IMG/VR virus record: IMGVR_UViG_2882234885_000004
From: an uncultured virus (IMG/VR IMGVR_UViG_2882234885_000004)
Taxonomy: Duplodnaviria > Heunggongvirae > Uroviricota > Caudoviricetes
Length of the DNA stretch: 64,000 nt
Strand: one strand, 5' to 3'
The notes below the pieces were generated by a model, which saw only the letters and a program-made list of their open reading frames with translations, ran no database searches and had not been told where the DNA came from. How positions within the stretch are numbered: the first letter of the stretch is position 1; every line of letters starts with the position of its first letter. Of the stretch, positions 1,811-32,164 are shown piece after piece. Both the position numbers and the translations under genes were made by a program.

Positions 1811-1849
1811 CCCCGGAACCCGTTGGGGCGCAACGGGTCTGGCGAGATT

Positions 1850-1936
1850 GGGGGTAAGTTTTTGTCGGGTTGGGGGGTAGTTTTTGTCGGAAAAGGGGGT
1901 AAGTTTTTGTCGGAGTCTGGGGGTAATTTTTGTCGG
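1850..1936 (+). repeat. Iteron array: 4 direct repeats of about GGGGGTAA(G)TTTTTGTCGG
   Basis: Repeats end at 1868, 1890, 1913 and 1936 (22-23 bp period, about two helical turns), next to a Rep_3 gene. Confidence 0.9.
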
Positions 1937-2107
1937 TAGCCCCATTTTTCTGGCCCCGAATGAGGTCAACTTTTCGGTTGATAGATTTTTTCTTATGTGG
2001 CATAACCGATTTTGGTTTCGAAGGAAGCATTTTTTTACTGAACATGATATCGCTGCTACTAATTAACGCTATTTGGTACAGGATAACACGGATTAAGACA
2101 ACATGAG

Positions 2108-2185
2108 AAATAGAGGGGTAATTTTTGTCGGTGACATAGTGGAACCCTTGAAATTAAGGCAAAAATAGAGGGGGACTTTTTGTCG
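2108..2185 (+). repeat. Two outlying iteron copies
   Basis: AAATAGAGGGGTAATTTTTGTCG at 2108 and AAATAGAGGGGGACTTTTTGTCG at 2163. Confidence 0.75.
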
Positions 2186-2381
2186 TATCGAAGAATCTTT
2201 CGTTTTGAACGAATATTCCAGTCCATTTGCGCACAGACCGAATCCATGCTACAATGTTAGTGTTGTAACTGAGGAAGTATCTATCACCTAAGACATCATA
2301 GAGATTTTCGTACGAGCAGGCATCAGGCTGATTTGGCCGGGCCTGCTTTTTTGCTGTCATTTTATCGAGGAGGAGAAGACT

Positions 2382-13197: not shown

Positions 13198-13212
13198 ATA
13201 GCATCCCTTCTT

Positions 13213-13246
13213 TCCCTGCTCTGCTGAAACACAGAGCAGGGATTTT
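13213..13246 (+). terminator. Intrinsic terminator
   Basis: TCCCTGCTCTG/CAGAGCAGGGA plus TTTT. Confidence 0.75.
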
Positions 13247-13265
13247 GCACGCACACTGCTCACGG

Positions 13266-13309
13266 TACTTAGGTGCTTAAACACTTAGGTGCCTAAGTTC
13301 TTGAGTGCT
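13266..13309. repeat. Octamer array A (YTAR-GTGC/RCAC units)
   Basis: TTAG gtgc TTAA acac TTAG gtgc CTAA gttc TTGA gtgc; 8-bp period. Confidence 0.75.
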
Positions 13310-13339
13310 CTTTGAGGATTCTTGTTCAGCCTGCTCAAT

Positions 13340-13470
13340 TTGACTTACTTTCCAGCGCGTGGTAGCATAGTTCTATAAAACAAGGAAGTATCTTAATTTA
13401 ATTATACATTTTCATCGGTATTACAAGGCAGTTGTTCTGGATTTCCAGAGCGGCTGCCTTTTTATATATA
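13340..13470 (+). promoter_or_regulatory. Promoter plus leader with a terminator (attenuator-like), copy A
   Basis: TTGACT-17-TAGCAT; 16-bp stem 13425-13460 followed by TTTATATATA, upstream of the first gene. Confidence 0.7.
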
Positions 13471-13548
13471 CACAAACTTTTAAAGATGCCCGTAAGAACA
13501 TAAGACCCTGTACGAATCCAGGGCAGGCGGGCGAAAGGAGTAAGTATT

Positions 13549-13755
13549 ATGTACGACTATGACTATTTCACAAAACGGATGGGTTATGTTATTGATGACG
13601 TACCCCTCGGCTCCAGAGAAGCAGCTTATGACTATCTGGTCACGAAATGCGGAATGGATGACACGGAAGCGGAGTCCTTCCTGCATCGCATCCGCAGTGA
13701 GTACTTGGCAAGGGTCCGGGCTGCGAAAAAGGCGTTGAAGGAGGTGCGTGGATAA
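13549..13755 (+). CDS. Small hypothetical protein
   Basis: GAAAGGAG RBS; stop overlaps the ATPase start (TAATG). Confidence 0.7.
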   Translation: MYDYDYFTKRMGYVIDDVPLGSREAAYDYLVTKCGMDDTEAESFLHRIRSEYLARVRAAKKALKEVRG

Positions 13756-15545
13756 TGGCGACCCATGCCTTGAATGTTCAGGCTGCGAGTTGGAATTCCG
13801 ACCTTTTCCCGGCGGAAATCTCTACGTGGAGTTCGACTCTGAATGACCCAAACTCGCTGTCTCCTCTTAGAATGAGTCCAAACGGCACAGTAACAGGCGC
13901 ACAACGCACTATTCTGAGCGTCGACGCAGCACGGGCCATCATCGCTTACATCAAAAGAGGCGACGCTGATATGGCCCTTGTGGACACGGGGAACGGCATG
14001 ACCTACTCGGCGGAAAAGACCCTGCCGGATGGGACAACACTCGTTGCAACAGTGAATCGGCCGTCATTCCAAAGCAACACTTTAAATCTCAGGGCCTCTA
14101 TCGTAACGGCAGCGGGTGCGTATACCCCAATCCCGCCTCTTTCCAGGAACTCTACTGTCGATTTATCCCCCGTCTTTCTATGCCTGCTGGCGCACGCAAT
14201 CGAGTCCTATCAAACCGTTTCAGAAGATATCGATTTGCTTGCAGCACACTATGCAACGACAGGAAAGTTTGACGGTGCGGCTGTCAACTTCCGCAGAATT
14301 GCGGATTCGCTGGTATTCATTCTAAATGAAAAACTCTTTGACGTCGCAGTCCCCGGGAGCAATATCGATATGCTGGCACAGCAGTCCGTAACGATGGGCA
14401 GTTTGAACGGAGTCACTATTTGTGGGACTCCTAACATTCTGGCTGAAATCAATGGAGTGAAACGGGCAACTGCAAGAACAATGACTTTTGCAGAGGCGAA
14501 GGCAAAATTCAAGTCTTTTGCTCAGAAGCATGAGTGGAGCGATGAAGAACGGGCACTTATCCCGGTGTTTCCCGAGGACTACAAGGTTCCTCAGGAAGCA
14601 ATCAAAATCGCGGACCTCTATGTGGCTACGCGAAACAGCCGTAGGCCCATGAACAACTTCATGTGGCGTGGCGTTACCTCCTATGGTAAATCCAGCGGTG
14701 TGGAGCTGATGGCGGCATTCCTTGAAATCCCGCTCCTGCGGATGACCTGTTCGACCTCGATGGAGACCCAGGACTTCCTGTCAAACTTTGTCCCGGACAA
14801 TGGCCCTCAAGGAAGCATGGCAGGGGAGCTGCCGTCCTTCACGGAGATTTCCGCAGACCCGGCTACCGCATACCAGATGCTGACCGGCATTGAGGATGAT
14901 AATGCGACCTGCGATATGTGCCTGAAGGCATATGCAGAAGCCGCTGTCGCCCGGGCTGGGAATGGGTCTGCCCGATTCAAGCATGTAGAGAGCAATTTCG
15001 TTAAGGCTCTGACCCGTGGCTATATCGTGGAAATCCAGGAAATCAGCCGAATCAAAGACGCCGGTGTGCTGGTCGGACTCAATGAGTATGACCGGCCAGG
15101 CGCGATTATCCCCCTGGTGGACGGCTCCTTTAAGCGCCGCCACCCGGATGCGATGGTCGTGTACACCGATAACGTCGGCTATGCATCCTGCCGGGCGATT
15201 GACCCGTCAGTCCTGCGCCGGATGTCCATTATCATCGACTCCTACGACATGCCGCGAGAGGACGTTATTGCCCGCGTGCTCTACAATACGGATTTCCCTG
15301 ACAGCTCGATGCTTGACCAAATGTACGACGTCTGGTCCGCAATCCAGGAATACTGCCAGGAGCACGACATCTCTGATGGTACTGTCTCGGTGACAGAACT
15401 GGAGATGTGGGCGCTCGCCGTGAAAGTGGATAACATGAGCAACATCAAGGATTACTGCCGTGACTGCGTTGTTGCAAAAGCGACCTCAGACCGGCAGGAG
15501 CAGGAAGCAATTATGGCGGATGTTGTGGATATCCGTCTGAGTTAA
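13755..15545 (+). CDS. AAA+ ATPase, MoxR/CbbQ/CobS-like, with a long N-terminal extension
   Basis: Walker A GVTSYGKS, Walker B-like IVEIQEI, YTDN, DPSVLRR arginine finger; precedes a vWA gene. Confidence 0.85.
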   Translation: MATHALNVQAASWNSDLFPAEISTWSSTLNDPNSLSPLRMSPNGTVTGAQRTILSVDAARAIIAYIKRGDADMALVDTGNGMTYSAEKTLPDGTTLVATVNRPSFQSNTLNLRASIVTAAGAYTPIPPLSRNSTVDLSPVFLCLLAHAIESYQTVSEDIDLLAAHYATTGKFDGAAVNFRRIADSLVFILNEKLFDVAVPGSNIDMLAQQSVTMGSLNGVTICGTPNILAEINGVKRATARTMTFAEAKAKFKSFAQKHEWSDEERALIPVFPEDYKVPQEAIKIADLYVATRNSRRPMNNFMWRGVTSYGKSSGVELMAAFLEIPLLRMTCSTSMETQDFLSNFVPDNGPQGSMAGELPSFTEISADPATAYQMLTGIEDDNATCDMCLKAYAEAAVARAGNGSARFKHVESNFVKALTRGYIVEIQEISRIKDAGVLVGLNEYDRPGAIIPLVDGSFKRRHPDAMVVYTDNVGYASCRAIDPSVLRRMSIIIDSYDMPREDVIARVLYNTDFPDSSMLDQMYDVWSAIQEYCQEHDISDGTVSVTELEMWALAVKVDNMSNIKDYCRDCVVAKATSDRQEQEAIMADVVDIRLS

Positions 15546-15550
15546 GTTAC

Positions 15551-15581
15551 AAGCGGAGCCTGAAGTTTCAGGCTCCGCTTT
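15551..15581 (+). terminator. Perfect 14-bp hairpin between the AAA+ and vWA genes
   Basis: AAGCGGAGCCTGAA-GT-TTCAGGCTCCGCTT. Confidence 0.65.
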
Positions 15582-15597
15582 CTGAAAGGAGTGCAAT

Positions 15598-17676
15598 ATG
15601 CCAAAAAGAGATATTGCGGCTCGGCTACGTCAGATGACGGCCGAGCAGTGTGCCACCCTGGACCCGCAGGAGATATTTACCTCTCCCGAGTTTGCAGAAC
15701 ACCTGCAGGGCCTGGTGAATGAGACCATGAAGATTGGAGGCAAGGCGACTAGCGAAATCTCCGTCAATGTGGTTACTACGCCGAACTCTCCACCTGGTTG
15801 GACAGACGGCAACGACATCTATGTCAATACCATCAATTCCGTATCCAGCCACTACACCTTGCCTTTGGAACAGTTTATCACACTTCGTGGCATCTGCTTC
15901 CATGAGTGCAGTCATGTACTCTACTTGGACTTCAACGAGGAGAAAAAGGCGCTGAAGTCTATTGGAGATGGCAAATTGTATGGCGAACTTCTTGTCCCAC
16001 AGACTGCGGAAGATGATTTGATGATGCACGAAATGGAGGATGCCTTGGCTGACCCTCTGTACCGTCCTATCTTCCAGCAGGTCTTTTCTGACGTCACTAA
16101 TACGATAGACGACCCCCATGATGAGGGGAAAATCATCCGTCGGTTTGGCGGCATCGTGGAACAGGGCATTGTCTTGGCCCGCGAGTCCCTGCTTCGTTCC
16201 TTCGATTATGCGGAGAACATCGTCGCAGGAAAGGGCTCAGACCTGGAAAAAATATATAGCCTTATGCTGGAGTACGCCCGGTTTGAAACCATCATGATGC
16301 GGGACCAGGACGCCTGCTTGAAAACTCAGCCGCTGGTCCAGTGCGTTGTCTCCCTGGCCAAGCCGATTGCCACCGCCCGTTGGACGGATGACATGAAGGT
16401 GCGGTTCGCGCAAATCAATGAGATTATGCTGAAGCTCTGGCCCTATATTAAGGCTGAGTTGGAAAAGCAGAAACAGCAAAAGAAACAGGAGAAGCAAAAT
16501 CAACAGGGGGACGATGATTCTAAGAATCCGCAGGGCAATCAGTCTGGAGGCAATTCCACGCAGGAAGCGGTACAGAATATTTTGGACCAACTCCAGAAGG
16601 TATCCCAAAATCAGAACGTCTCTGCTCACCCGAACCGGCGCACTTCCTCCACGGAAGCTGTCAAGAATCGGCAGGCCGCTCGGGCTGGGAAGCAACCAGC
16701 CAGTGGGGAGAAGACCCGTCCAGTGAATCAGGACAGTGCAATGAAGTCTGCCCAGGCCGCCTTGGACGCTGTTGCGAAGAAAGTCGCAGAACGGATTGCG
16801 GCGGCAGCCATGGAGCGGGACTTGACATCAAACCTGATGATGGAGATAGACCAGACCGCTATCGGCTCCAGTCACAGCGGCAAAATATGTGCAAAGCGTG
16901 ATTTAGAGGTAGATGCCAGTGACATCAAGTTGTACGAGAGGCAGATGGAGGATGTAAAGGCATACTCCAAGAGGCTCCAGAGACGGATGTCTGATGCTCT
17001 GCGTGACATGCAGGAAGGTGGGGTGGCCCATCACAAGCAGTTTGGCAACCGTATCGAGGCCCAATATGCCTACCGCCCGGACCAGAAGTTCTATGCGAAC
17101 AAAAAACTGCCGCAGGACTGGCCCTCTATGGCAATCTCCATCCTGGTAGACCTCTCCACCTCCATGCGAGGGGAGCGGCTGAACTCTGCAATGAAGGCAA
17201 CGATGCTGCTCTATGACTTCGCCACCGGCTTAGGTATTCCTGTATTTGTAGCTGGACACAATGCCGTGTTTGGTCAGGTCAACTATCAAATCATGGCGGA
17301 CTTTGAGAAGGTGAGTGAGAACGATAAGTACCGGCTTGCGCACATGTACCTGAGCGGGTGCAATCGGGACGGAGCGGCCATTGAGGTCTCTTCGTCGCTA
17401 TTGGCTAAACGGAGCGAAGATGTCAAACTCCTGTTCATTATCTCGGACGGGCAGCCTAACGATGGAAACTATAAGGGAGAAACCGCCAAGAAGGATATCC
17501 AGGACATCCTGACCAAGTACCGCCGCAAGGGTATTACGACCTTTGCCACGGCAATCGGGTCAGACAAGGATAAAATCAAAGCAATCTATGGGGACGGGTA
17601 TCTGGACATCACAGATTTGACTCAATTCCCCAAGCAACTGACCAACATGGTCGTGAAGCGCATCATGCGCTATTGA
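15598..17676 (+). CDS. CobT/NorD-like vWA protein with an N-terminal HExxH motif
   Basis: FHECSH; Gln-rich linker; MIDAS DLSTS..NRDG..ISDGQP. Confidence 0.85.
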   Translation: MPKRDIAARLRQMTAEQCATLDPQEIFTSPEFAEHLQGLVNETMKIGGKATSEISVNVVTTPNSPPGWTDGNDIYVNTINSVSSHYTLPLEQFITLRGICFHECSHVLYLDFNEEKKALKSIGDGKLYGELLVPQTAEDDLMMHEMEDALADPLYRPIFQQVFSDVTNTIDDPHDEGKIIRRFGGIVEQGIVLARESLLRSFDYAENIVAGKGSDLEKIYSLMLEYARFETIMMRDQDACLKTQPLVQCVVSLAKPIATARWTDDMKVRFAQINEIMLKLWPYIKAELEKQKQQKKQEKQNQQGDDDSKNPQGNQSGGNSTQEAVQNILDQLQKVSQNQNVSAHPNRRTSSTEAVKNRQAARAGKQPASGEKTRPVNQDSAMKSAQAALDAVAKKVAERIAAAAMERDLTSNLMMEIDQTAIGSSHSGKICAKRDLEVDASDIKLYERQMEDVKAYSKRLQRRMSDALRDMQEGGVAHHKQFGNRIEAQYAYRPDQKFYANKKLPQDWPSMAISILVDLSTSMRGERLNSAMKATMLLYDFATGLGIPVFVAGHNAVFGQVNYQIMADFEKVSENDKYRLAHMYLSGCNRDGAAIEVSSSLLAKRSEDVKLLFIISDGQPNDGNYKGETAKKDIQDILTKYRRKGITTFATAIGSDKDKIKAIYGDGYLDITDLTQFPKQLTNMVVKRIMRY

Positions 17677-17721
17677 ACATGCAAAGAGGCTCGTACCGCT
17701 ATGCGGTGCGGGCCTCTTCAT

Positions 17722-17765
17722 TTAGGCACTTAGGTGAGTAGGTGCTTAGACACTTAAGCACCTAG
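17722..17765. repeat. Octamer array B
   Basis: TTAG gcac TTAG gtga GTAG gtgc TTAG acac TTAA gcac CTAG. Confidence 0.75.
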
Positions 17766-17810
17766 TGAAAATGGAGTGACCAGTAGAAGAATACCTACCA
17801 TCTCGCAAAA

Positions 17811-17941
17811 TTGACCAATAAATTTTAACGTGGTACAATAATCCTATCAAATAAGGGAGTATCTCATTCACAAAACATCTAAATCATCGAAGATTCAAGA
17901 CAGCTTTCCTAATTACATGGAGGGCTGTCTTTTTATATATA
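17811..17941 (+). promoter_or_regulatory. Promoter plus leader with a terminator (attenuator-like), copy B
   Basis: TTGACC-17-TACAAT; 13-bp stem 17897-17931 followed by TTTATATATA. Confidence 0.7.
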
Positions 17942-17969
17942 TGCCACATCTCAAAAAGGAGGAATTTGA

Positions 17970-18890
17970 ATGGTCAACACCATCATTGCCAAGACGAACG
18001 GCAAGGATAAAGTCATTGACTTTCGAGATTGCCTGAACTTGGCAAACAAGGATGACTATGCAATGATGCATGGCATCGGAGGGAAAGAGCACGCCCGGAC
18101 ATCAGTCATCAAGCTGACTATCTGCGATTACACGGCGGGGAAGGGGGAACTGTCCAAGACGGTTTCTGCCAATATCTCACCCGCCACATGCGAGAAATTG
18201 TTTGAGGTCTGCAAGCGAAACATTGGGACGCTCGTTGTCGATGACAATGTGGCTCCCTTGGTTGAGCAAAGGTCCCACAACAAGAAGCAGAATAAGATTG
18301 CGGATATGCAGTTTGAAGTGCTTCAGCACGTTCTGAAACTCACGAAGGCAATCTATAAGGCGGCGAATCAGAAGCAGATGCCTGGCGTGGAAGTCATTGC
18401 GAACTCGCTGATTTCCATGCTCTCGCAGGCAAAAGACCATGTTTTGGCTCAGGAGGAAGACCCGCCCAGACCGGCCGCGTTTGAAATTCCGTGCCACTGT
18501 GACATCAACTATGTTCAGGACCGGGTTCATGCCAGCAAAGCCGGAGCGGATGGGTATGCCCCGGTCCAGCGGCTCACGATTGCCCATCATACCTACCGGC
18601 AGGATGGCAAACAGAGCATGTATCCCTGGATGGTCAAGGTGGTAAACGGGAATGCCTTTGTGAAGGTCAGTGACATTGGGGCCACGACCTTCGACCCCAA
18701 GACACTCCGTGATACGACTGAGGCATTCATCATGATTTCAGACGACGATATGTTTCGTTGCATGAACAGCGTATTGCATTATATCGACGCCTGGGAAAAG
18801 TTGGCCTGTATCCCGCTTATCAAGGAGGGCTTGAAGAAGCGGCAGGCGGAGTATGAAGCGTATAAGCAGAGTCAGCAGGAAGGAGTGTAA
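17970..18890 (+). CDS. Hypothetical protein
   Basis: AAGGAGG RBS; 306-aa ORF heading the ERF/primase operon. Confidence 0.8.
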   Translation: MVNTIIAKTNGKDKVIDFRDCLNLANKDDYAMMHGIGGKEHARTSVIKLTICDYTAGKGELSKTVSANISPATCEKLFEVCKRNIGTLVVDDNVAPLVEQRSHNKKQNKIADMQFEVLQHVLKLTKAIYKAANQKQMPGVEVIANSLISMLSQAKDHVLAQEEDPPRPAAFEIPCHCDINYVQDRVHASKAGADGYAPVQRLTIAHHTYRQDGKQSMYPWMVKVVNGNAFVKVSDIGATTFDPKTLRDTTEAFIMISDDDMFRCMNSVLHYIDAWEKLACIPLIKEGLKKRQAEYEAYKQSQQEGV

Positions 18891-18896
18891 AAACTA

Positions 18897-19679
18897 ATGG
18901 AACTGGATGAAGTCAAGAAACTGAACATTTTTGAGCGGGTGGCCCTCATTACAGCCGAAATCGGCTCTGTGACAAAAGACCTCAAGGTCGGTGAGGGGGA
19001 GAAGTCCTACCAGGCGACCAGTGAAGGAAGTGTCCTGTCGGCGGTGAAGCCGTTGGAAGAGAAGTACCGTGTCTTTTCCTATGCAGTGACCCGTGAGAAG
19101 GAGACACAAATCATTGAGAAGGAATATACCTGGAACGGACAGCAGCGGAAAATCCGCCTGGTCAAGGTTGACATCACGGCCACTTATCGATTTGTGAACA
19201 TCGATAACCCGAAGGAATACATCGAGACCATTTCCTACGGCACTGGCCTGGATACCGGCGACAAGGCGGCCGGGAAGGCGATGACCTATGCGGATAAGTA
19301 TGCCCTGATGAAGATGTACAAAATTTCGACCGGCAACGCAAATGACCCGGATTCCTACAGTTCGCCCGATGATGGGTACATTTTCGGCCAGTTTGCGGAC
19401 TATCCGAGTGAGGATAACCCGCTGGACTATTCGCCGAGAGAGGAACCAAAAGCAGAGCAAAGTGCTCAAAACGCCAATCCTGAAGGGGGCCGCATGAGCC
19501 TTGATGAGGCCAAAGCAGTCATTCTCCCGATTGGTGAGCATAAGGGCCACACCATGGGTGAAGTTCTTGCTATCAAGCCGGGACTCATCGATTTCTATGC
19601 CAGCCAGAAATTCAATTCCGGCAAGTATCCGTATTTAAAGGAAGCGGCTCAGGTCATTCTTGAGAACCAAGGTGCTTAA
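18897..19679 (+). CDS. ERF-family single-strand annealing protein
   Basis: GTGLDTGDKAAGKAMTYADKYAL; C-terminal LPIGEHKGHTMGEV module. Confidence 0.85.
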   Translation: MELDEVKKLNIFERVALITAEIGSVTKDLKVGEGEKSYQATSEGSVLSAVKPLEEKYRVFSYAVTREKETQIIEKEYTWNGQQRKIRLVKVDITATYRFVNIDNPKEYIETISYGTGLDTGDKAAGKAMTYADKYALMKMYKISTGNANDPDSYSSPDDGYIFGQFADYPSEDNPLDYSPREEPKAEQSAQNANPEGGRMSLDEAKAVILPIGEHKGHTMGEVLAIKPGLIDFYASQKFNSGKYPYLKEAAQVILENQGA

Positions 19680-19684
19680 GCACC
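19671..19684. repeat. Octamer site C, perfect palindrome
   Basis: GGTGCTTAAGCACC over the ERF stop codon. Confidence 0.65.
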
Positions 19685-19708
19685 AAAAGAAAGGAGGCAG
19701 CCTCGGCG

Positions 19709-21163
19709 ATGTACAGCCAGCCCAAAATTGACATCCGCGAGGTTGTCAACCTACTGGGGCTTAAAGTTGACCCAAAGTGCTCCATAAACTCTGATACGTT
19801 CAATGTACAATGTCCTTTTTGCCGCGACAAAAAGTATCACATGAATATCAACGCTGAGAAGAACGTGTATTCATGTGTGCTTTGCAGCAAAGAGAAGGGG
19901 CAGGGCGCTTTGGACCTATACAGCAGAGTTGTGCATGGAGAGCGATGCGTCAAGGGGCAAAATTCCAAAAAAATCTTTATGGAACTCTGTGATGCTTTGC
20001 ACCTCGGAGGACCATCAGAACGAAAGACGGAGGTGAAAGAGCGGCCATCGTTGCCGAGAATTCTTCGGGCAGATGATGACACGGTAGGGAAGACTTATGC
20101 GGCGCTTCTTGCTTTCGAGCCCCTTGCTCTTACAGAGCAGCATCGGGAGAATTTGAAGCGGCGTGGGTTTTCAGATGAGACGATTGACCGGAATGAGTAC
20201 CGCTCCTTGGGCCAGAACTATGACTGGCTCGGCGAGTACTCAGATAGCAGAAGTCTCTATCGCAGGCTCAGGTCAGCCATCAAGGAAAATAAAAAATTAA
20301 GACATAAAAGGGAGGATGAAATTGTCGCTGGTCTGGCTCTGGCACAGCACTTACTCAAACTTGGGTGTACTCTAGCAGGCGTTCCTGGTTTTTATAAAAT
20401 CGGTGACTCCTGGAGCTTCAACATCACGCCCGGAATGCTTGTCCCAACCCGAAACATGAAGGGTCAGGTAGTTGCCCTACAAGTCCGGCGGGATAAACCG
20501 GAGAATTGGGAGACAAAAAACAAGGACCGCAAGTTTCTGCGGTATATGACTGTTTCCTCGAAGGGATTGCCTGCTGGCGTTACCGAGGGAATCAGCCGAG
20601 CACATTTCCCCCTGGCGAATCCACCTCTTTCCAAGGATGTGCATGTGTGTGTCACAGAGGGGCCACTGAAGGCAGACGCCGCAAGTGAACTGCTGGGGTC
20701 CGATGCAAAGGTGTTTTTCATCGCGCTTCATGGAACCATGAACACGAAGGAGCTCCCTGGTTTCTTTAAACTGTGCAAGGAAAAGGGAATCGAGCGTATT
20801 GAAAATGCGTTCGATATGGATAAGACCACAAATTTCCATGTCGCGGAGGCCGGAAAAGGCGTCTGGAAAAAGGCAAAAGCTGCTGGCCTCTCCGTCGCGG
20901 TGCGTTGCTGGGATGAGGACTTCGCAAAGAAGAAATATCGTGAGTTGGGTATTCTGTGTGCCAATCACGATATCTTTGTACCGACTTCTCTCAACGTTTT
21001 CGTCGATGTCGCGGCCATGGCAAGAGCGCTGGAAGCCGCAGGTGTGGAGCATAGTGTTGAGACTTTACCAGACGGAACAGAAGTCAAACACTACTGGGAT
21101 GATGCTACTAAGGGCATAGATGATTACCTGCTTACGCAAAAGCAGCAGAAGACTAACTCCTAA
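19709..21163 (+). CDS. Primase-like protein (Zn finger plus Toprim, DUF3854-like)
   Basis: CPFC..CVLC; VTEGPLKAD; AFDMD; KGIDDYL. Confidence 0.8.
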   Translation: MYSQPKIDIREVVNLLGLKVDPKCSINSDTFNVQCPFCRDKKYHMNINAEKNVYSCVLCSKEKGQGALDLYSRVVHGERCVKGQNSKKIFMELCDALHLGGPSERKTEVKERPSLPRILRADDDTVGKTYAALLAFEPLALTEQHRENLKRRGFSDETIDRNEYRSLGQNYDWLGEYSDSRSLYRRLRSAIKENKKLRHKREDEIVAGLALAQHLLKLGCTLAGVPGFYKIGDSWSFNITPGMLVPTRNMKGQVVALQVRRDKPENWETKNKDRKFLRYMTVSSKGLPAGVTEGISRAHFPLANPPLSKDVHVCVTEGPLKADAASELLGSDAKVFFIALHGTMNTKELPGFFKLCKEKGIERIENAFDMDKTTNFHVAEAGKGVWKKAKAAGLSVAVRCWDEDFAKKKYRELGILCANHDIFVPTSLNVFVDVAAMARALEAAGVEHSVETLPDGTEVKHYWDDATKGIDDYLLTQKQQKTNS

Positions 21164-30714: not shown

Positions 30715-30743
30715 TTGACCAAAATAATGTAAAATGGTACAAT
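30715..30743 (+). promoter_or_regulatory. Promoter (repeated family)
   Basis: TTGACC-17-TACAAT with TGG extension. Confidence 0.7.
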
Positions 30744-30790
30744 ATTGTACCGGGATATATAGCCCGGAAAATAAAAAGGAGGTCAAGAAC

Positions 30791-32164
30791 ATGGCTGATT
30801 CTATGGAAGTCCATGCAGAGGAAGTCGGGCAGCCTGCCGATGAACTGGTCGTACAAGACCCTGATTTCAATGGTGAGAACGAGGAAATCAATGCTGCCGA
30901 TGCGGAAAACGAAGCAGCCTCTGCTGGCTCTGCTCCGTCTGGTGACGGCCAGGATAGTCCCCAGGAAGCCCAGCCTGAAGAGAAGCCGAAGCGCCGCCGG
31001 GCAAAGCAGACTACAGCAAAGGATGCTTCTGACGGCGAAGGAGAATCTGAGCCTGCAGAAGCCGGGCCTACGCGCCGTAGGACGAAGATGGAGGCTGCTG
31101 GCGATTCCGGTATGAGCCGTGCAGAAGTTCTCAGAGATGCCCGGCAGCGTGAAGCGGAGCGGCTGATTGCCCGTCAGGAGCGTGAGCGTTTCCTGGCAGG
31201 CTGGTCGGCTCTGAAGACCGCTATGCGCCGCCACAGCATTGTCAACGGCGTTGTGTCCAGCGTCGAAATCAGGCACGTTGGAGGTCCTGATGAAGTGACT
31301 GAAGACCTTGTTCTGCTGGCTGTCATGCTGGACGGAGGGTACAAGGTCCTGGTGCCTTTGGAGGAGTTTTATCAGGAGAATCCGGTCGACATGCGTACAG
31401 CGACTGACCTGGATACCGCCGAAGGTCAGAGAGAGCTTACACGCCGTAAGAGAGCCCTGGCAGAAAAGCTCTATGAGCTTCAGATTCCTCTCATCATCAC
31501 CGATATGGAGATGAACGACCGGGACGAGACCGGGGCCTATGATTATGCCATCGTTGGTTCCCGGCGCAAGGCGCTTGACATCATTGAGATGCAGAACTTT
31601 GGCGCTGGCCGTGGCGGGAATCAGGCAATCAATGAGGGTGACATGGTGCCCGCCACCATTACCTCTGTGTCAATTCATGGCGTTGCGGTCGTGGTAGGCG
31701 GCGTGGATACTCGTATTCCCATGCGCCTTCTGACATTCCGGTATCTGTTGGATGCCCGGACTGCATACCACGTTGGGCAGGAACTTTTGGTCTACGTGAA
31801 CAAGATTGAGACCCTTCCGAATGGGCGGCACGAGATTGAGGTCAGTGCGAAGCAAGCTGAGCTCCAATCTGCCCGGATGCGGCAGAAGCTGCTCCCTGTC
31901 GGAACCTCAACTTTGGGCGTTATTACGTCAGTTCGTCCTGCGCCCTCGCGTCCTGATATCCCCGCCGGAACGCTGAATATCACAGCGTATTTGAAGATGT
32001 ATGACATGCCTGCGATTGTCCGTGGCCTTCCGGTGGCATACCTTGGGCGGCCGCCTATCGCTGGTGATGAGGTGCGTCTGGTCGTCCTCGGCTTCACGCC
32101 TGCGGGGTTTGTTGTGGCTGACTGCCGCAGCTTTAATGGCGCACCCGGGTTGCTGAATCACTAA
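30791..32164 (+). CDS. S1/OB-fold nucleic-acid-binding protein with an acidic disordered N-terminus
   Basis: EGDMVPATITSVSIHGVAVVVGGVDTRIP..YHVGQELLVYV..IEVSAKQ; GSRRKA; AAGGAGG RBS. Confidence 0.7.
   Translation: MADSMEVHAEEVGQPADELVVQDPDFNGENEEINAADAENEAASAGSAPSGDGQDSPQEAQPEEKPKRRRAKQTTAKDASDGEGESEPAEAGPTRRRTKMEAAGDSGMSRAEVLRDARQREAERLIARQERERFLAGWSALKTAMRRHSIVNGVVSSVEIRHVGGPDEVTEDLVLLAVMLDGGYKVLVPLEEFYQENPVDMRTATDLDTAEGQRELTRRKRALAEKLYELQIPLIITDMEMNDRDETGAYDYAIVGSRRKALDIIEMQNFGAGRGGNQAINEGDMVPATITSVSIHGVAVVVGGVDTRIPMRLLTFRYLLDARTAYHVGQELLVYVNKIETLPNGRHEIEVSAKQAELQSARMRQKLLPVGTSTLGVITSVRPAPSRPDIPAGTLNITAYLKMYDMPAIVRGLPVAYLGRPPIAGDEVRLVVLGFTPAGFVVADCRSFNGAPGLLNH

Follow-up and report, generated by a model that had tools for sequence, protein, structure and literature searches.

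What controls the two DNA-metabolism operons found in the window, the whole 64,000-nucleotide stretch analyzed here (IMG/VR record IMGVR_UViG_2882234885_000004; G000:C20:337810-401809)? One encodes an AAA+-like ATPase and a vWA protein, the other an ERF annealing protein and a primase-like protein, and the first-pass annotation had described ahead of each the same module, which it took for a plasmid attenuation or antitermination switch. Both modules were found where it had placed them and share one architecture far beyond chance (octamer arrays, extended -10 promoters, a 21-nt motif, stems with the arms it gave, a U-tract, and a tail). A plasmid switch acting on two operons was not what emerged, however: the window lies inside an integrated 252,229-bp conjugative element (the island), and the module heads a regulon of 31 operons. 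Complementarity between these leaders and an intergenic RNA encoded elsewhere in the element suggests that this trans-encoded antisense RNA probably blocks translation of the operons' first genes, within a multi-layer negative control.

The leader module runs from a promoter through an invariant box, spanning about +8 to +18, and a stem with its U-tract to a ribosome-binding site (RBS). A genome-wide search for promoter plus box returned 34 rows, 29 in the island and five in the host, where the boxes are poorer and the tail is missing. Later, two further copies came to light that have a variant -35, one in the window (box at 2271) and the other on the minus strand, in the same orientation as its genes, and these bring the element to 31 copies; the module described earlier was thus real and its count of two too low. 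An earlier motif search of the element had given five exact copies and 17 when up to five mismatches were allowed. The box core, AGGRAGTAT, occurs 36 times in the island, 31 times behind a promoter and five times inside open reading frames (ORFs). The box starts at +6 to +9 from the predicted transcription start in 29 of 29 copies (+8 in 20 of them), and the predicted start is an A, seven bases past the -10, in 26 of 29. Nearly all copies sit about 40 nt ahead of an RBS; the copy at C20:289429 has no gene within 290 nt. The hexamer TCATCG, previously listed as a shared feature, was seen by eye in two of 25 aligned copies and does not belong to the module. The leaders of the window and the genes behind them are as follows.

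2227..2352, plus strand: third copy in the window, with promoter, box (2271-2281), stem, and U-tract and no tail; precedes a dUTPase-like gene (assigned by eye) at 2382-2831.
13340..13368, plus strand: leader-class promoter 1 (-35, 17 nt, TG, -10; extended -10), predicted +1 at 13375.
Starts at 13373 and 17844, plus strand: the 21-nt motif of the first-pass annotation.
13382..13392, plus strand: invariant 5' box 1 with the core, from about +8; retained in the diverged clade.
13427..13463, plus strand: terminator-like stem (13427-13458) and U5 tract of leader 1.
13465..13477, plus strand: 13-nt tail of leader 1, the exact complement of the trans RNA seed at G000:C20:479570-479582, about 77.5 kb beyond the window end.
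13549..13755, plus strand: first gene (68 aa), a predicted target of the antisense RNA; the distance from tail to Shine-Dalgarno sequence (SD) is reduced by a local stem, and a homolog stands behind the same leader in the diverged element G771/G772.
13755..17676, plus strand: AAA+-like ATPase (596 aa) and vWA protein (692 aa).
17811..17839, plus strand: leader-class promoter 2 (extended -10), predicted +1 at 17846.
17853..17863, plus strand: 5' box, copy 2.
17899..17948, plus strand: stem (17899-17929), U5 tract, and degenerate tail of leader 2; its pairing with the RNA is predicted to be weak (-7.3 kcal/mol net) and chiefly via the SD.
17970..21163, plus strand: 306-aa protein, ERF annealing protein, and primase-like protein.

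Stem statistics were taken on 25 copies, with the four variant and two late-found copies set aside; in these, the linker measured 25-37 nt, the stem 8-17 bp, and the U run 4-7. Because the stems had been selected by a pairing rule on their first six positions, positions 6-9 offer a fair test of covariation. These positions were paired in 95% of cases within a copy versus 52% across copies, and there were 35 G-U versus two A-C pairs, which bears out the earlier claim of covariation with G-U tolerance under RNA-level selection. RNAalifold and pair counts on a MAFFT alignment were uninformative on this point; median identity between copies over linker plus stem was 50%. In the ortholog of window leader 1 from fragment G402, the promoter spacer differs, yet the -35, the TG-10, and the box are retained at the same offset. 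Folding of full leaders predicted the stem in 25 of 25 (pair probability 0.99-1.0), and each leader's own 5' part paired with the stem arms no better than the 5' parts of other leaders did (rank 0.55-0.58; 25 leaders). With no alternative cis fold, the leader is not a classical attenuator, contrary to the earlier proposal of cis attenuation, and control must come in trans. No leader peptide was found in the leaders. The terminator-like leader of the first-pass annotation is supported, and the stem likely acts as a leaky terminator. Two variant leaders, at L006:9558-9656 and C20:336279, have in common another structure behind the box, made of two hairpins; the genes that follow them are GNAT-like (by eye) and YhgA-like, respectively.

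The 13-mer that follows the U-tract occurs 15 times on the plus strand, every time at a leader. Its reverse complement has a single occurrence in the 3.1-Mb genome, at C20:479570 (about 0.003 expected by chance in the island), inside an intergenic unit of about 310 nt at C20:479313-479625 with its own promoter and terminator, whose putative transcript is here called the trans RNA. This RNA (fold z -6.1) contains an 82-nt tRNA-like cloverleaf domain ending in ACCA, where ARAGORN makes no call, and it has no Rfam match at gathering. Its seed is partly single-stranded, with a hairpin-held anti-SD segment just 5' of it. In G401, the RNA differs at two positions, against 93% identity over the surrounding 5.5 kb.

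Pairing with the trans RNA was strongly enriched at the regulon. Duplexes of -16 kcal/mol or better were predicted for 18 of 24 first genes; the corresponding counts were 7 among the 269 remaining genes of the island and 18 among 2500 RBS windows of the host, taken from 2558. A net cofold energy of -13 kcal/mol or better was reached by 14 of 24 targets (23 first genes and one internal gene) versus none of 269 control genes. The pairing site tracks the RBS and not the terminator, being displaced from stem to SD at C20:432749 and at about C20:429800, and the best duplex in the island (-25.8) precedes the internal gene C20:465657, which has no leader. A second spacer of the RNA holds a 14-nt exact complement of the deviant tail at C20:443990, and a third fits the SD type at five RBSs, two of them behind tail-less leaders; neither is enriched at group level. 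For related gut contigs, the -16 threshold was reached by 24 of the 35 distinct leaders. The pairing between the trans RNA and the leader sites is very probably real and would explain the conservation of the tail through complementarity to a trans-encoded antisense RNA. As expected of a trans-encoded antisense small RNA, it is encoded separately and complementary to the translation-initiation regions of its targets, and because this one RNA is complementary to the RBS regions of most operons, it likely silences the whole regulon.

Weaker support comes from a distant relative, in which equivalent pairing appears to have been kept with different letters. G771 and G772 are two IMG/VR records, close to each other, whose AAA+ protein is about 55% identical to that of G000 and which carry the same two operons behind homologous leaders. 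G772 has 20 boxes with a promoter, 17 of them with a stem, and the box-to-stem linker is 19-21 nt in 17 of 17. The 13-mer and seed of G000 are absent from G772. Instead, a motif from SD to AUG occurs at 17 of 19 first genes versus 11 of 99 controls in G772 (one leader without an RBS within 200 nt was dropped from the set) and at 0 of 24 and 0 of 165 in G000. Through the tRNA-like domain, nhmmer detected a syntenic RNA (E 6e-5) that lies between the HD gene and the tRNA cluster. It is an array of three 54-nt tRNA-like repeats that have no anticodon arm; a pyrimidine spacer follows each of them, and another small repeat stands in between. Its spacers pair straight over SD and AUG. In both clades, the regulatory RNA stands at the head of one tRNA cluster.

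A two-by-two test showed enrichment in the matched RNA and target sets only. The G000 seed gave -16.4 versus -7.2 on its own first genes (p 3e-10) and -7.2 versus -7.4 on those of G772 (p 0.75); G772 spacers s1 and s2 gave -18.5 and -19.2 versus -15.0 and -16.2 on their own first genes (p 0.005 and 0.002) and no enrichment on G000 (p 0.99 and 0.96). The effect in G772 is modest because anti-SD spacers pair with any SD. A phage search for the G772 RNA gave no match, PLSDB gave no match for either RNA, and IMG/VR pattern scans for the G000 RNA returned three unrelated matches or none, the protein scans nothing. G402 lacks the RNA, but this fragment ends 3.8 kb before the RNA locus.

In the mechanism that we propose, the element-encoded tRNA-like RNA would bind a site beside the first RBS in most of the 31 leaders, its single-stranded seed acting as a toehold from which pairing would extend into the adjacent anti-SD segment and cover the SD. 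Host RNase P may cut the tRNA-like domains, maturing or protecting the antisense units. The protein encoded after parA (the ParA partner, C20:248618-249094) likely binds the upstream octamer arrays as a second, DNA-level layer, and the box is likely an RNA site for a putative factor that sets read-through of the leaky stem. Repression is quite probably the outcome of pairing. Because DNA transfer leaves both the RNA and the protein behind, the regulon would be freed for a short time upon arrival in a new host or on induction; release on entry into a new host is plausible, but that this is the main releasing signal is somewhat less likely than not. The regulon includes primase, ERF, YqaJ, RecD2, UvrD, SSB-like, Dcm, and NADAR genes and many small genes without assigned function.

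The octamer arrays of the window stand upstream of the two leaders, the second directly after the end of the first operon:

13264..13308, no strand assigned: octamer array 1, direct and inverted 8-bp repeats; likely site of the element's ParA partner.
17684..17720, plus strand: operon-end hairpin of the AAA+/vWA operon.
17722..17767, no strand assigned: octamer array 2.

In G772, at least two octamers in a fixed 8-bp phase lie just upstream of the -35 region in 20 of 20 leaders versus 12% of random windows. In G000, octamers were found in 17 of 30 leaders, farther upstream, versus 2 of 25 box-less element promoters, one of which is that of parA; nine arrays lie elsewhere in the element. The parA promoter has octamer arrays in both clades, and the ParA partner is conserved in both, which makes an omega-like role as octamer binder conceivable for it. 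Foldseek gave no match for this protein, and Atlas gave leads only (0.85-0.87). A conserved 79-aa protein, also considered, looks like a membrane protein and was rejected.

Hints about expression came from gut sequencing runs, eight of which were aligned, all as contigs; X1, X4, X5, and X10 had flat, DNA-like depth and were not used. One study contributed four runs whose cover is uneven and RNA-like, and in these a contig starts at 13384-13391 and crosses stem 1; at the second leader, a contig starts at 17857-17858 and crosses stem 2 in two runs and enters from upstream in the other two. Contigs of this kind show neither starts nor levels, and one study does not amount to replication, so they give at most hints that read-through of the stems occurs in the gut; as both stems are crossed, the operons are probably not fully off.

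Several observations weigh against translational repression by the trans RNA as set out above. The case is computational throughout, and the comparison of clades involves two clades only. Among the 24 predicted complexes, only 9 cover the SD. Of 30 plus-strand leaders, 12 have no site even when wobble pairing is allowed, and the pairing of window leader 2 is weak. The wobble-compatible pattern has a second minus-strand match, at C20:294804, and substitutions in the sites are mostly, not all, of the wobble type (two of three in the element itself, four of six in relatives). Spacers A and B of G000 showed no group-level enrichment (p 0.2 and 0.09), nor did four of the six G772 spacers, and with the best of six spacers, 0 of 19 G772 first genes lay beyond the control 5th percentile (p 0.028). 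The RNA-study contigs run through both stems into the operons. For the DNA-level layer, the ParA partner's C-terminus appears as strand-helix-helix in a low-confidence model (pLDDT 57), its fold unconfirmed.

The same evidence could be taken further. The RNA might be a programmable antisense array in which host tRNA-processing enzymes cut the tRNA-like repeats and each freed spacer silences a set of RBSs, an RNA master repressor of about 30 operons that is left behind at transfer, coupled to a +8 box that tunes leader termination via a putative factor; this would amount to CRISPR-like repeat-spacer logic without a Cas protein. We regard this extended form as less likely than not.

An alternative places the main switch at the box. 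In an N-, Q-, or LoaP-like antitermination, a factor would load at the box and polymerase would read through the stem, the antisense RNA mopping up the leak; the regulon would then be an induced program of excision, replication, and transfer, possibly started by the element's sigma factor. The box is the most conserved part of the leader, has a fixed offset, and was kept across clades while the tail changed, the G772 linker is nearly constant in length, and no cis switch was found. In both clades, the box in the leader of the SSB-like gene is folded into a cis stem of 8 bp whose letters differ between them, which suggests that the box acts as RNA. The G772 leader promoters combine a poor -35 with a different extended -10, and between the clades the element sigma is changed in region 3.0. 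No candidate factor came to light: the element has no NusG paralog (host NusG only), no Q protein was found, and PHROGs yielded nothing for an antitermination factor, although most element proteins are unannotated and its absence is therefore not shown. The tail is left unexplained by this scheme. Antitermination at the box is possible; as the main switch it appears unlikely.

The element sigma-70 protein (L007:14658-16034) stands behind a box-less promoter in both clades, and the parallel differences in its region 3.0 and in the leader promoters suggest that it may read the leader promoters. Two RNA polymerase alpha-CTD-like proteins that stand alone (L004:12472-12843 and L008:13618-14124) both adjoin leaders and were not found in G771/G772 at E 1e-8. 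An S1-domain protein inside the type IV secretion system (T4SS) cluster (window 30734-32164) is a candidate RNA-binding factor, and a protein with a ProQ C-terminal-like domain (L009:18018-18371) a possible RNA chaperone; both are conserved in G771/G772. No RNA complementary to the 5' box was found, the best candidates lying within ORFs; an apparent one, at C20:334323, is a minus-strand leader copy.

Returning to the trans RNA, its pairing could in principle activate or stabilize the targets by opening or protecting the RBS region or by recruiting ribosomes through the tRNA-like domain. The presence of the operons in gut RNA-library contigs would fit such a role, as would the binding of the G000 seed upstream of the SD, which is left free in 15 of 24 predicted complexes. 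Blocking the tail barely changed predicted SD accessibility in 6 of 7 leaders computed, however, the anti-SD abuts the G000 seed, and the G772 spacers lie directly on the SD and start codon, so we judge activation highly unlikely.

Marginally less probable still is a reading without antisense function, in which the box is a DNA operator or an SD-mimic 5' stabilizer (STAB-SD), the stems are leaky terminators of the ordinary kind, and a decayed inverted leader copy accounts for the reversed tail. A STAB-SD is defined as a 5'-proximal SD mimic that lacks a start codon and retains anti-SD pairing (PMC4113751). The G000 boxes do pair with the host anti-SD (mean -7.9 kcal/mol, no start codon at SD spacing), and the minus strand of the RNA's 3' end reads stem, tail, and SD-like sequence, as an inverted leader would. 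This pairing is lost, however, in 8 of 20 G772 boxes (only -2.5 to -3.0), and the RNA has its G-U pairs, promoter, and U-tract on the plus strand, the minus strand lacking a box. The near-invariance of the RNA in G401 and the matched change of RNA and targets in G772 likewise speak against decay, and an inverted-copy origin would be compatible with present function. Finally, that the terminated 80-95-nt RNAs are themselves the product, 31 decoys titrating a host RNA-binding protein in the manner of CsrB, has strong promoters, short terminated RNAs, a GGA in the box, and the geneless copy at C20:289429 in its favor, but with no CsrA in this 99%-complete genome and nearly all copies placed shortly before an RBS, its probability is very small.

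Translational repression by the trans RNA was then compared with known systems. C4 RNA and the CI RNA of P4 have a cloverleaf fold, block translation, and bring about CI-induced termination. Like them, the trans RNA belongs to a mobile element and is predicted to act in trans on short repeated target sites, and like C4 it has a tRNA-like fold with acceptor stem and T-arm, as do the G772 units (a tRNA model scored 22 bits on the G772 RNA, below gathering). It differs in its seeds, which occupy single-stranded spacers located 3' of tRNA-like units, form an array, and are directed at about 20 operons of a Firmicutes conjugative element; no match to C4 (RF01695, c4-2) was obtained at E up to 10 for the G000 RNA or up to 1 for the G772 RNA. 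The C4 antisense RNA of phages P1 and P7 (Rfam RF01695) arises from a precursor that is an RNase P substrate (PMC4919922, PMC2864571).

[quoted passage not shown] A multi-operon regulon, extended -10 promoters, and short repeats upstream of the -35 (strictly so in G772, less regularly in G000) are shared; unlike in that description, the unit is an octamer and not the TTATCCC heptamer, 31 operons are involved, and box, stem, and antisense RNA are added. Omega2/parS of pSM19035 has contiguous direct and inverted repeats of a 7-bp unit at promoters including that of parA, and a small ParA partner with an unstructured N-terminus (PMC3074150). The present element shares such repeats and a small ParA partner with an unstructured N-terminus; the unit here is 8 bp, about 20 arrays are present, and a ribbon-helix-helix is only suggested.

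The pLS20 elements are more distant. Its conAn, a large RNA element with a protein, and the cATT zipper attenuator each occur once, as a long element at the head of the conjugation operon, and cATT includes a cis antiterminator (PMC8191782, PMC13401043). Terminator-based control on a Gram-positive conjugative element is common to both; here, the leaders are short, multi-copy, without a cis alternative, and precede non-T4SS operons, whereas the T4SS genes of the window follow box-less promoters. EGeRS1, likewise a conserved sequence repeated ahead of several operons, is described as 420-750 bp, GC-rich, without a sigma-A promoter, and blocking read-through (PMC8708921), whereas the present leader is about 130 bp, AT-rich, and has a promoter. 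The first-pass view that this is not a described family therefore stands: Rfam gave no match at gathering in the window and none at E up to 1 in 13200-18000. PLSDB gave no match for the leader, promoter plus box matched once in 7 of 400 family genomes and several times in none, and distant homologous operons in G024, G265, and G058 (66-80 kb read per contig) had no such leaders. In its workings, the proposed system resembles a C4-type antisense RNA superimposed on an EGeRS2-type regulon, but it is a member of neither; no such system was found in Rfam or, by title, in the open-access literature searched, supplements aside.

Brief on/off switching of establishment and DNA-metabolism genes is known for few systems, which use a protein repressor, single-stranded DNA promoters, or EGeRS1; if true, control of a 20-30-operon regulon by an RNA repressor would add one more to these. 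The leader marks which of about 290 mostly uncharacterized genes form the regulon and so gives a short list for anti-defense screens. A tRNA-like repeat array with exchangeable anti-RBS spacers, if processed as predicted, would be a compact multiplex silencing design for Firmicutes.

The element (GC content 52% versus about 61% in the host) encodes Rep3, type IV secretion genes, ParA, a large serine recombinase, its own sigma-70 protein, and 24 tRNA calls. It interrupts the host's only spoIVA gene, whose two halves sum to 493 codons, so that excision would be needed for spore-coat assembly. At the insertion (G000:C20:236830-237272 and 489502-490537), inverted-repeat arms flank a 2-bp core, with the serine recombinase at the right end; G772 runs from the recombinase directly into the left-end genes, as expected of a circle. 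Iteron-like repeats beside the Rep3 gene (window 1828-2185) indicate a plasmid-type replicon retained in the integrated element. A metagenome-assembled genome labeled Intestinimonas carries a near-identical stretch, and related DNA was found in runs from chicken gut and from other gut samples.

Promoters of a second class, which lack the box and have a conserved AT-rich spacer and a possible shared operator, head transfer and surface genes, with 25 members in the element by pattern and 10 in the window (2880, 11089, 21211, 24632, 29880, 30711, 38668, 41276, 50091, and 53387). The element tRNAs (L003:16510-19472, L007:16404, L011:1931-7384) include two clusters broken by TnpB-like genes or ORFs. 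At L002:1314-7420, a Type I-C cas5-cas8c-cas7 set is accompanied by an array of about 36 degenerate repeat units, and a leader copy begins directly after the last repeat; no cas3, cas1, or cas2 was present among the scanned proteins. An SLH-domain protein at L004:2753-3910 shows a weak ATLF-domain match (E 4e-7) and probably has a surface metalloprotease-like fold.

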